From positions 79,196 to 143,195 of the forward strand of contig JAZHDD010000059.1 in assembly GCA_036541255.1 (NCBI GenBank): a stretch of DNA of 64,000 nucleotides, written 5' to 3'. The notes under the pieces were generated by a model that did no database searches, was not told the DNA's origin, and was given only the letters and a program-made list of their open reading frames with translations. Shown here one piece after another: positions 1,314-51,523 of the stretch; the first letter of the stretch is position 1, and every line of letters begins with the position of its first letter. Source of the stretch: Desulfovibrionaceae bacterium. GTDB lineage: Bacteria > Desulfobacterota > Desulfovibrionia > Desulfovibrionales > Desulfovibrionaceae. The translations under genes were made by a program, and so were the position numbers.

Positions 1314-1404
1314 CAGGGAAGCCGGGTGGCGGTTGCGTCGTGAACCCCGTCAGGCCCGAAAGGGAGCAGCGGTAACGGTTGTTGCCGGGTGCCTGGCTTC
1401 CCTG
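1314..1404 (+). ncRNA. ffs: Signal recognition particle RNA (4.5S, small bacterial SRP)
   Basis: Domain IV motif GTCAGGCCCGAAAGGGAGCAGC inside a long hairpin closed by CAGGGAAGCC/GGCTTCCCTG; TTGACT-17-TAGATA upstream (1244-1272). Confidence 0.93.
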
Positions 1405-1510
1405 AAAAGCGCGTCTCGATCCGAAAGGATAGACGCGCTTTTTTTGTGGTTATTGAAAGCACAAAATGTATTCGTTTCATCCTCCAATTCAACGAAAACA
1501 AGATTGGTGA

Positions 1511-1539
1511 TTGACGCGTGTTATTGGTTTGGATAACGT
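1511..1539 (+). promoter_or_regulatory. sigma70-type promoter for the DUF4198 gene
   Basis: TTGACG-17 nt-TAACGT. Confidence 0.55.
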
Positions 1540-1580
1540 GTGAAAATACTAATTAATGGTATCCCGAACTGGAGGTGGGT

Positions 1581-2327
1581 ATGAAACGGTTATCGTTGGC
1601 TTGCGTTGCTGCGGCTTTGGTTCTTATGCTTTGTTCCAGCGCCATGGCGCATTTTGGAATGGTCATCCCCGACAAGGACGAGGTCCTGCAGGATGACAAG
1701 AATATCCATTTGGCCCTTTCTTTTTCTCATCCTTTTGAAGGCATTGGGATGAATTTGGTCAAGCCGGAAAAATTTGATGTATATTTTGAAGGTAAAGCCA
1801 CCAATCTTCTTGGCAGCCTGAAAGAAACCAAAATAATGGATCATATGGCCTGGGGAGCGGATTACAAAGTGACACGTCCGGGCATGTATACGTTCGTGAT
1901 GGAGCCGAAACCCTATCCTGAACCAGCCGAAGACAACTATATCATTCATTATACGAAGGTTGTCGTGGATGCATTCGAGGGCGGCGAAGAATGGAATCAG
2001 CCCTTGGGCATCAAGACCGAGATCGTTCCGCTGACCCGTCCTTTTGGCAACTATGCGGGGAATGTCTTCCAGGGGTTGGTGCTGGTTGATGGCAAGGCCG
2101 TTCCGTATGCCCGCGTCGAGGTTGAATTCTACAATAAGGACAAATCCCGCGAAGCTCCCAATGGCCGTATGATTACGCAGGAAGTCCTGTGCGACGGCAA
2201 TGGTGTGTTTACCTTTGCCTGTCCCTGGCAGGGGTGGTGGGGGTTTGCTGCATTGACCGACGCCGACTACCAGATTGAAGGCAAGGTGGTGGAGTTGGGC
2301 GCGGTGCTTTGGATGGAAATGAAGTAA
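1581..2327 (+). CDS. DUF4198 family periplasmic protein (Ni/Co uptake-associated)
   Basis: Signal peptide ending AMA-HFGM (N-terminal His), SFSHPFE, EIVPLTRP and GWWGFAAL motifs; GGAGG RBS. Confidence 0.85.
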   Translation: MKRLSLACVAAALVLMLCSSAMAHFGMVIPDKDEVLQDDKNIHLALSFSHPFEGIGMNLVKPEKFDVYFEGKATNLLGSLKETKIMDHMAWGADYKVTRPGMYTFVMEPKPYPEPAEDNYIIHYTKVVVDAFEGGEEWNQPLGIKTEIVPLTRPFGNYAGNVFQGLVLVDGKAVPYARVEVEFYNKDKSREAPNGRMITQEVLCDGNGVFTFACPWQGWWGFAALTDADYQIEGKVVELGAVLWMEMK

Positions 2328-15116: not shown

Positions 15117-15145
15117 GTCATAGTCTCTTCATTCTTGGCTGTCAA
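15117..15145 (-). promoter_or_regulatory. sigma70 promoter of rpsF-rpsR-rplI-dnaB
   Basis: TTGACA-17 nt-TATGAC. Confidence 0.75.
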
Positions 15146-15354
15146 GGGTTGCGGCCCTTGTCGTCGGCTTCGTTTGTCGGTTGCTGCTGATGAGGCGTTT
15201 TCAAATCGTCTCCCTCGGTTTCGGTTTCCTGTGGCGGCTTCCAGCCGCACTGATTGGCGGCACCTCAGGAGGGCAGGCCGAGTCGGGGCAACACAAAGCG
15301 CATCAGGACAAAGGCGCCTACGAATGTTCCGAGCAGAATAAGCAGGTCCTGCAT
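15142..15354 (-). CDS. Candidate small membrane selenoprotein, 70 aa, Sec at codon 30 (not in the ORF track)
   Basis: ATG overlaps the purC stop (TGATG) after GGAGG; MQDLLILLGTFVGAFVLMRFVLPRLGLPS-TGA-GAANQCGWKPPQETETEGDDLKTPHQQQPTNEADDKGRNP*; SECIS-like hairpin downstream of the TGA; selC in window. Confidence 0.65.
15231..15250 (-). promoter_or_regulatory. Putative bacterial SECIS element
   Basis: GT-GCGGCT-GGA-AGCCGC-C-AC hairpin; G-starting apical loop begins 22 nt after the in-frame TGA (15267-15265). Confidence 0.6.
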
Positions 15355-16250
15355 CAATCCTCCAGTTTCGAGCCGGTCAACCGTTCATAGGCTTCCAGGT
15401 ATTTTTCCTGGGTGCGCATGGCTACGTCCTCAGGGATGTTTGGCGCGGGGGGCTGCTTGTTGAAGCCGATGTCCGTGAGCCAGTCGCGCAGGTATTGTTT
15501 GTCGAAGCTGGGCTGTCCATGGCCGGGTTCGTAACCGTTTACCGGCCAGAAACGCGAGGAGTCGGGCGTCAGCACTTCGTCAATGAGCATGAGCCCCTGA
15601 TCGGTGAGGCCAAATTCGAATTTTGTGTCGGCAATGATGATGCCGCGTTCGCAGGCGTAGTAACGCGCACGGGAATAGATCTCTATGGCGGTGCGCTGCA
15701 CCTGCTCCATGAGTTCCGTCCCGATCAAGTCCCGGGCTTGGGCCACACTGATGTTTTCGTCGTGCGAGCCGAGTTCGGCCTTTGTGGACGGGGTGAACAG
15801 CGGTTCGGCCAGCATGTCGGACTCCTTGAGTCCTTCGGGCAGTACATGTCCGCAAACCTTACCTGTTTTCAGGTAATCCTTCCAGCCGGAACCCGTGATG
15901 TAGCCGCGTACGATGCATTCGATGGGCAGCGGTTTGGCCTTTGTGACAAGGACGCTACGTCCCTCCAGTTCGGCGGCATAGGCGTGCAGGGGTGCGGGAA
16001 AGTCAGCAACCTTGCTGGCCAGAACGTGGTTGGCGATAATATCCTGATATTTTTCCATCCAGAACAAAGTGATCTGGTTCAGAATGCGTCCCTTGAGCGG
16101 AATGGGATCAGGCATGATCACGTCAAAGGCCGAGATGCGATCCGTGGTTACGATGAGCAGGGATTCCGGTGATATTTCATAGATGTCGCGCACTTTTCCG
16201 CGCGAGACCAGTGGATATTCCTTGATGTTTGTCTGGATGACGGGCTGCAT
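15354..16250 (-). CDS. purC: SAICAR synthase
   Basis: GKVRDIY, TDRISAFD, ECIVRGY, FTPSTK, ADTKFEFG, DEVLTPDSSRFW, DKQYLRDWL. Confidence 0.97.
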   Translation of the reverse strand: MQPVIQTNIKEYPLVSRGKVRDIYEISPESLLIVTTDRISAFDVIMPDPIPLKGRILNQITLFWMEKYQDIIANHVLASKVADFPAPLHAYAAELEGRSVLVTKAKPLPIECIVRGYITGSGWKDYLKTGKVCGHVLPEGLKESDMLAEPLFTPSTKAELGSHDENISVAQARDLIGTELMEQVQRTAIEIYSRARYYACERGIIIADTKFEFGLTDQGLMLIDEVLTPDSSRFWPVNGYEPGHGQPSFDKQYLRDWLTDIGFNKQPPAPNIPEDVAMRTQEKYLEAYERLTGSKLED

Positions 16251-51429: not shown

Positions 51430-51523
51430 TGGCGGAAGCGTATAGGAGTCGAACCTACCGCGGACGTTGCCGCCCGCCACTGGGTTTGAAGCCCAGGCGC
51501 CACACCGGTGACGAAACGCTTCC
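51430..51523 (-). tRNA. selC: tRNA-Sec (anticodon TCA)
   Basis: 94 nt; 8-bp acceptor GGAAGCGT/ACGCTTCC, 6-bp D stem with 4-nt loop, CTTCAAA anticodon loop, long variable arm GCGGGCG-GCAA-CGTCCGC, G discriminator + CCA. Confidence 0.96.

Follow-up and report, generated by a model that had tools for sequence, protein, structure and literature searches.

A candidate single-pass membrane selenoprotein gene between purC and rpsF in a Desulfovibrionaceae genome, and its family across bacterial phyla

Introduction

Bacterial selenoproteins that depend on SelB and a bacterial SECIS element (bSECIS) are recognized by an in-frame UGA, a hairpin that fits the bSECIS model, Cys homologues, and co-occurrence with selA, selB, selC, and selD, all of which are shared by the family that we describe here. 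In the excerpts of PMC13188914 that set out the bSECIS model, the hairpin has a loop of 3–9 nt with a G at loop position 1–2 and a stem of 4–16 bp, lies 16–37 nt from the UGA, and folds at −7.5 kcal/mol at most; the same excerpts report that Sec forms are usually far fewer than Cys homologues. Characterized bacterial selenoproteins are mostly thioredoxin-fold or enzyme domains, whereas the members of this family are made of one helix and a disordered tail.

In architecture, the family resembles human SELENOS (SelS), whose Sec and Cys both lie in the disordered C-terminal part of a membrane protein, as well as SELENOK, another membrane protein with Sec in a region of this kind; in both cases, the likeness is an analogy of architecture only. 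For SelS, excerpts of PMC3628699 propose a Cys-Sec selenosulfide and describe a truncated, Sec-free form. By the same excerpts, SelS differs in being eukaryotic and 189 residues long, with a penultimate Sec and a SECIS in the 3'-UTR, whereas the SECIS of the family is of the coding-region type. Comparing the family with Pfam and the PDB gave no match to SELENOS or SELENOK.

Clusters of sulfane-sulfur genes (i.e. SQR, rhodanese, persulfide dioxygenase, and ArsR proteins of the SqrR/BigR type) are also relevant here, as the family gene lies inside such clusters in many loci of Planctomycetota, Acidobacteriota, and Myxococcota. The excerpts of PMC9774590, which treat these clusters, name no such micro-protein. 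The ArsR proteins beside the family gene score below the BigR cut-off, and the window locus is without a sulfane-sulfur cluster. Lastly, DUF6132 (PF19628) is a similar small membrane protein in which a hydrophobic stretch precedes C-x-S-G-x-C (C-x4-C), and it is the direct upstream neighbour of the family gene in one Cys-form lineage. Profile comparison with DUF6132 showed no homology (probability of 3.9% over 12 columns).

The locus analysed here lies in a 64,000-nt stretch of contig JAZHDD010000059.1 (positions 79,196 to 143,195, assembly GCA_036541255.1) from a Desulfovibrionaceae bacterium, hereafter the window. An earlier note, made from the letters of the window alone, had proposed a hidden 70-residue membrane selenoprotein between purC and rpsF.

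Results

The reading frame between purC and rpsF

The candidate gene is on the minus strand, where all features of the window given below are also found, and runs from an ATG to a final TGA (15142..15354). Translated with TGA as U and compared with its homologues, it encodes a predicted single-pass protein of 70 residues. The start is as the earlier note had read it: a Shine-Dalgarno-like GGAGG (15359..15363) lies inside the 3' end of purC, 4 nt ahead of the ATG, and the A of this ATG at 15354 is the last base of the purC stop (TGA, 15356–15354), which creates the overlap TGATG (purC stop, 15354..15356). We infer from this overlap that translation of the candidate gene may be coupled to that of purC.

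The frame then encodes a predicted transmembrane helix (residues 4–22, 15289..15345; mean hydropathy 2.42, within a predicted helix 2–24), followed by a P-R-L-G stretch and an in-frame UGA at codon 30 (15265..15267), which translation and family conservation predict to be selenocysteine. Family-wide, a near-invariant P-[RK]-x-G cap stands between helix and UGA. The order of one helix and then a TGA thus holds as proposed, and so does the Cys 6 codons beyond it, i.e. Cys36 (15247..15249), which translation and homologues predict to be the partner of Sec30. The frame had also been said to remain open up to the −35 box of the rpsF promoter, and its final TGA (15144–15142) indeed falls within the TTGACA box (15145–15140) of the predicted promoter (15117..15145). 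This promoter prediction (TTGACA, 17 nt, and a hexamer starting with TA) was not called by a simple consensus promoter scan and rests on its recurrence in front of rpsF in all 14 distinct loci that carry rpsF (18 rows compared, 4 of them duplicates).

In the window (15145–15075) and in 13 related loci, the conserved predicted promoter is followed by a conserved pyrimidine-rich leader ahead of rpsF. This region of the window has no match in Rfam, and we take the leader motif to be possibly a regulatory RNA of the S6:S18 type.

The tRNA call confirms selC at 51430..51523, i.e. a tRNA-SeC with anticodon UCA that would act in trans, and the same genome also carries selA, selB, and a TGA-containing selD.

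A large family and its database records

A homologue search of 61 related genomes provided 25 full-length homologues, the window's own included (the search gave 30 loci, 4 of them unrelated, and one more homologue was recovered later). All 25 share P23, G26, U30, and the downstream Cys without exception. The profile built from the homologues matches 191 of 401 Desulfobacterota genomes, a few of them near E 0.01 and possibly by chance, and 135 of 251 genomes in the window's order. In one large genus of the window's family (g50), the profile search did not find the gene in any of 48 genomes; selA is present in all 10 genomes of this genus that were tested.

Scanning GTDB with a degenerate motif leads to an estimate of ~1,500 matching stretches, extrapolated from 6 of 64 parts scanned. 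Among 120 matches that were fetched, 119 are members with the helix and the TGA and 1 is spurious. By record titles, these members come from Desulfobacterota, Planctomycetota, Acidobacteriota, Myxococcota, Obscuribacteraceae, Spirochaetota, Rokubacteria/Methylomirabilota, Zixibacteria, and Coatesbacteria. The family is present in about half of the sampled Desulfobacterota genomes and in about a tenth of the sampled Planctomycetota.

Against 1.84 billion protein representatives, the profile matched 595 clusters. Among the best 150 of these, 88 break off immediately ahead of the UGA position, 46 have a Cys at this position, and the remainder have W, G, or another residue, probably in part because the UGA was read under other codes. 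The claim that ORF callers miss the gene needs correction, as its first half is often called (the same 88 of the best 150). Databases store the family solely as a 29-residue truncated peptide or as a hypothetical Cys form, and the source annotations that we met read "hypothetical" or "uncharacterized" protein, with one labelled HemY.

Profile searches were needed to reach the homologues, as a word-based protein search with the window protein gave no match. The window protein also has no match in Pfam, NCBIfam 20.0, or the PDB, and no meaningful match in Rfam. When family members were queried, the best hits were to unrelated membrane proteins, both in NCBIfam (E 0.039 for 25 Sec members and 0.022 for 46 Cys members) and in Pfam (E 0.0024). 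With the Cys homologue P0005 as query, a protein atlas gave no named family, its match being an unnamed cluster from Planctomycetota with 123 members (score 0.90).

No family match was found in plasmid sequences, and viral contigs gave two motif matches, one spurious and one real. The latter (L318:1380-1625) is an IMG/VR contig with an intact TGA member, and may be host DNA. Three loci (L079, L116, and L117) carry two paralogues in tandem between purC and rpsF, each with the TGA, and the second paralogue of L117 is without a Cys after the Sec. Another locus (L069, ~1400–1630, minus strand) has an internal duplication with two UGA motifs and a Cys after the second, and is possibly a two-Sec form.

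Evidence that codon 30 encodes selenocysteine

Reading the UGA site in 75 relatives gave TGA in 74, TAA in one, and TAG in none, and all 21 further genes (from 19 of 20 loci) have TGA. In contrast with the usual excess of Cys homologues, the Sec form dominates the family, with 119 to 0 in the GTDB motif sample; the motif pattern fixed TG, so that TGY and TGG were visible among these matches while TAA and TAG could not appear.

Beyond the TGA, the tail extends over at least 14 residues in 206 of 207 distinct TGA members, compared with 64% in other frames. Specifically, a Cys lies 4–6 residues past the Sec in 181 of these 207 members, compared with 5.6% in a comparable window of other frames; 198 have a Cys somewhere past the Sec and 9 have none. 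Codon comparison among 7 close relatives was uninformative past the UGA, because these codons are also under constraint from the hairpin.

Homologues with Cys in place of the Sec (e.g. WP_078683970.1, with Cys aligned to the UGA) are real at the DNA level, as 34 distinct TGY loci remain from 48 metagenome matches once duplicates, spurious matches, and cut ends are removed. Pooled with four Planctomycetota copies, they represent ~22 lineages at 70% identity. The sequences suggest a repeated change from Sec to Cys, because 12 of the 38 Cys forms have a Sec form rather than another Cys form as their closest relative (by identity).

Every one of the 191 family-positive genomes has selA over the cut-off, or selB in the 9 without selA, although with 377 of 401 Desulfobacterota genomes positive for selA, this co-occurrence is a weak test of little power in that phylum. 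In Planctomycetota, where selA is found in 129 of 201 genomes, the TGA copies lie in selA-positive genomes in 16 of 16 cases (15 without the seed genome), and the 4 of 4 TGY copies, from three lineages, lie in genomes in which the search found neither selA nor selB.

The single TAA copy (L058:1501-1683, G039) is in a small genome positive for selA and selB, and a locus from the same genus (L118) keeps the TGA. This copy, which counts against recoding, is likely decayed, i.e. a pseudogene, or else a natural 29-residue form. In three metatranscriptome contig sets from one study, no piece among those listed covers the family gene, a result that is neutral on its expression.

The earlier note had tied its proposal to conservation of the frame past the TGA, to the presence of TGA rather than TAA or TAG in relatives, and to co-occurrence with sel genes, and the relatives agree with it on these points. 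We conclude that the gene is a real gene of a large family and, reasoning from the sequences, that its UGA30 is very likely decoded as Sec.

A hairpin of the bSECIS type

The hairpin that the earlier note had described is present downstream of the UGA (15234..15248). Upon folding, it has 6 bp and a GGA loop that starts 22 nt after the UGA, and reaches −8.7 kcal/mol, and it fits the bSECIS model as given in the excerpts of PMC13188914 (scored by our own script). Shuffled sequences fold as well in 11 of 200 cases for a 31-nt piece (z −1.76) and in 107 of 200 cases for a 68-nt piece (z 0.22), and an equally strong hairpin follows 2.3% of 3,000 TGA trinucleotides sampled in the window's own genome. 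The hairpin of the window is weak evidence by itself, and it is conservation across the family that makes the case convincing.

For example, a hairpin of −5 kcal/mol or lower is found in 103 of 119 and in 65 of 74 TGA members, compared with 17% and 12% in synonymous-codon controls, and at −7 kcal/mol or lower the proportion is 82 of 119 (control 9%). The peptide encoded under the hairpin varies widely while the hairpin stays, whereas in Cys forms the hairpin is mostly lost (7 of 34 at −5 kcal/mol or lower, control 9%). Covariation points the same way, with two-sided changes at all 7 pairs among 49 members in a shared register (53 of 128 members were fitted and 49 aligned). These members have 95 cells with two-sided changes against 6–19 in slid controls, a count that is inflated because the register set was picked for pairing, and a covariation score of 0.72 against 0.04–0.16. 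Both conservation and covariation of the hairpin, which the earlier note had named as tests, are found in the family, the latter in the set picked for pairing.

The hairpin bears directly on the alternative that the UGA is an ordinary stop, with a 29-residue product and, downstream of it, either a separate micro-peptide that starts from an ATG after the TGA or an RNA element. Such an ATG does follow the TGA directly in 110 of 207 members, and the 29-residue form is found in databases. However, the hairpin is gone when TGA becomes TGY, the codon tracks the presence of selA, TAA or TAG is nearly absent from the site (1 of 75), and the window gene has GGT after its TGA. Stop-restart coupling was rejected as well, since the Cys homologues are continuous and also have a Met after their Cys in 20 of 34. 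Altogether, we consider an ordinary stop very improbable.

Topology and the Sec/Cys pair

AlphaFold modelling on 25 homologues gives one helix at residues 2–24 (pLDDT ~90) followed by low-confidence coil, and the Desulfobacterota members that were read are mostly 44–70 residues long. The first five residues are acidic (mean of 0.85 D/E and 0.2 K/R), and the flank that follows the helix is richer in K+R than the N-terminus in 205 of 207 members. Under the positive-inside rule for membrane protein topology, the Sec would therefore face the cytoplasm, i.e. the protein is predicted to have its N-terminus outside and its Sec-bearing tail inside. A bacterial lipoprotein, which carries the lipobox pattern [LVI][ASTVIG][GAS]-C/U after a signal peptide with a basic N-region, was rejected, as the lipobox fits 1 of 207 members and the N-terminus is acidic.

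The U-x5-C pair that had been proposed stands for the window gene, where it is formed with Cys36, but not as the spacing of the family, in which U-x4-C is commonest (140 of 207) and x5 is found in 27. In the 198 members that have the Cys, the spacer is never below 4, being typically 4–6 with a Cys sometimes far down the tail. A thioredoxin-fold selenoprotein of the UxxC/CxxU kind was rejected on this spacing and on the architecture of one helix followed by coil. Of the 34 Cys forms, most are without the hairpin, and 31 retain the second Cys at +5, so its position reflects a constraint on the protein and not just on the hairpin. In some loci (L110–L115, L130, L145, L174, and L225), the second Cys is shifted toward the C-terminus, often as GGC or GC at or near the end.

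The tail past the Sec is variable, with a median length of 26 and a median net charge of 0. The acidic, disordered tail of the original proposal is therefore upheld in its disorder, in line with the modelled coil, while its acidity is specific to this genome and is ruled out as a family trait.

Gene neighbourhoods and fusions

Within the window's order, the gene is surrounded by housekeeping genes (purC in 16, rpsF in 13, and fabI in 5 of 48 loci), and the purC/rpsF setting is lineage synteny that gives no functional clue. A tRNA-Ser(GGA) gene is near the family gene in 10 of 26 close relatives (L008, L010, L011, L013–L016, L018, L021, and L022) and serS in 4, a proximity that is probably ancestral gene order.

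Across 161 loci, by contrast with this order, clustering of ORFs (some counted as chained ORFs) recovers thioredoxin-type proteins (27), ArsR (17), FmdB zinc ribbons (16), CcdA/DsbD-type proteins (14), metallo-beta-lactamase/rhodanese (11), DUF302 (10), zf-HC2 anti-sigma factors (7), YgaP-like (6), SQR-like (5), and NrfD (5). In a stricter, seed-based count, sulfane-sulfur genes (rhodanese, persulfide-dioxygenase-like, DUF302, YgaP-like, SQR-like, and TauE-type) are found in 20 of 80 GTDB loci, 12 of 34 Cys loci, and 1 of 47 further Desulfobacterota loci. The corresponding numbers for thiol-redox genes are 8 (thioredoxin-type), 16, and 8, an ArsR repressor is present in 14 of the 80 GTDB loci, and 26 of the 34 Cys loci have a sulfur or thiol gene. 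In random 5-kb windows of the window's own genome, the background is 1.2% for sulfane-sulfur, 0.9% for thiol-redox, and 0.6% for ArsR genes. The direction of the enrichment can be trusted but its size cannot, because the seeds were drawn from the counted loci and the background is one unrelated genome that is not phylum-matched; the loci also include kin, with 9 Cys loci being one lineage.

Three of 247 members run on in frame into a WCGPC thioredoxin, i.e. one Sec form (L141:2444-2953) and two near-identical Cys forms (L254:1444-1956 and L255:989-1507), with tails of 140–141 residues. In the Sec form, a separate ATG, preceded by a purine-rich stretch, is available to the thioredoxin, so that this fusion may be read-through into a separate gene. 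One Cys-form lineage (L260, L265, L266, L275, L281, L283, L292, L295, and L296) has the order thioredoxin, DUF6132, family gene, and CcdA-thioredoxin fusion, which makes it a compact candidate redox relay. Through the neighbour genes and the thioredoxin fusions, the redox idea of the earlier note gains support.

The neighbourhoods also speak to a selenoprotein whose Sec and Cys would bind a metal or cluster (Zn, Cu, Hg, or Fe-S) at the membrane, perhaps together with the FmdB zinc ribbon and with no redox cycling. In Desulfobacterota, no neighbour is more common than FmdB (14 of 47), and a member without its own Cys (L249:30-389) continues in frame into an FmdB zinc ribbon. Several Cys forms also have extra adjacent cysteines, and the neighbours include a few P-type ATPase-like, cation-efflux, or NikR-like genes. 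Thioredoxin and sulfur genes nevertheless recur more than metal transporters, and the pair offers two ligands only across its variable spacer. Metal binding is, in our view, unlikely.

Regulators near the gene, i.e. ArsR (in the 17 loci noted above), zf-HC2 anti-sigma factors (7), ECF sigma factors (5), and histidine kinases (5), would suit a membrane sensor of redox or selenium that signals to an ECF sigma factor with its zinc-finger anti-sigma factor, to ArsR, or to a two-component system; its two states would be the 29-residue and the full-length form. Because the UGA follows the helix closely, a product terminated there would still have its membrane anchor intact. On the other hand, these regulators plausibly just control the operon, the tail beyond the codons for the hairpin is not conserved, and Cys forms cannot switch on selenium and yet persist in ~22 lineages, all of which makes a sensor quite improbable.

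Membership, as a small accessory subunit, in a membrane complex (CcdA/DsbD-type electron transfer, an NrfD module, or an RND exporter), with the helix face binding the complex and the Sec passing electrons or sulfur, would agree with the strong conservation of W14, L17, W20, P23, and G26 family-wide. A CcdA-type gene is adjacent in several lineages (the 14 loci by clusters; 5 of 47 and 9 of 34 in the seed-based count), NrfD is found in 5 loci, and RND parts are present in several Planctomycetota and Acidobacteriota loci. No single partner tracks the gene across phyla, however, and none is adjacent in the window's order, and the odds of a subunit role are accordingly rated as low as those of a sensor.

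Discussion

We propose that the family encodes a membrane-tethered, cytoplasm-facing Sec/Cys redox centre that is recycled by thioredoxin, and give this reading a probability of roughly 55% on the evidence of genes and sequences. In the proposed mechanism, a hairpin bound by SelB would let UGA30 be read as Sec, while absence of selenium would leave the 29-residue peptide. The single helix would sit in the membrane with the N-terminus outside and the Sec-bearing tail inside, where the selenol may attack persulfide or polysulfide (sulfane sulfur) or another thiol oxidant at the membrane. Cys36 would then resolve the oxidized or sulfurated Sec30 into a selenenylsulfide, and thioredoxin would reduce it back, with a role in sulfane-sulfur or thiol-stress defence. 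The chemistry, i.e. oxidation or sulfuration at Sec with resolution by Cys, and the thioredoxin partner are both inferred. The housekeeping neighbours in the window's own order, the scarcity of sulfane-sulfur genes in the 47 further Desulfobacterota loci, and the 9 of 207 members without a Cys after the Sec count against this redox model.

At the level of its sequence, the gene passes the tests for a bacterial selenoprotein gene, i.e. a UGA with coding beyond it, a bSECIS, Sec machinery, and Cys homologues. Table 1 of the 2026 review PMC13188914 contains 119 families and subfamilies, none of which matches the family by name or Sec motif. A literature search that included the motif letters found no description of the family, although a mention is possible in Haft and Tolstoy 2025, in the BSepDB family table, or in the groundwater deep-Sep list. 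The literature compared includes PMC1976440, deep-Sep (PMC12013277), and BSepDB (PMC13326102), with partial texts among these sources, and the families of Haft and Tolstoy through the table of PMC13188914. On this basis, the family has probably not yet been described.

A broader view, which we hold as doubtful, is that these proteins are among the most widespread uncatalogued bacterial selenoproteins (more than 1,000 species in at least eight phyla) and a counterpart of SelK/SelS. In such a scheme, a fold-less tethered selenol would catch sulfane sulfur at the inner face of the membrane and hand it to thioredoxin, and selenium supply would switch between the 29-residue anchor and the active form.

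The family would add a single-pass, fold-less architecture to the bacterial selenoproteins and would fill a gap in sulfane-sulfur and thioredoxin gene clusters. With ~50 residues, whole synthesis of the protein is feasible, and versions with Sec, with Cys, without Cys, and fused to thioredoxin exist in nature. Given this synthesizable size and these natural variants, it would be directly testable why Sec is retained in place of Cys.
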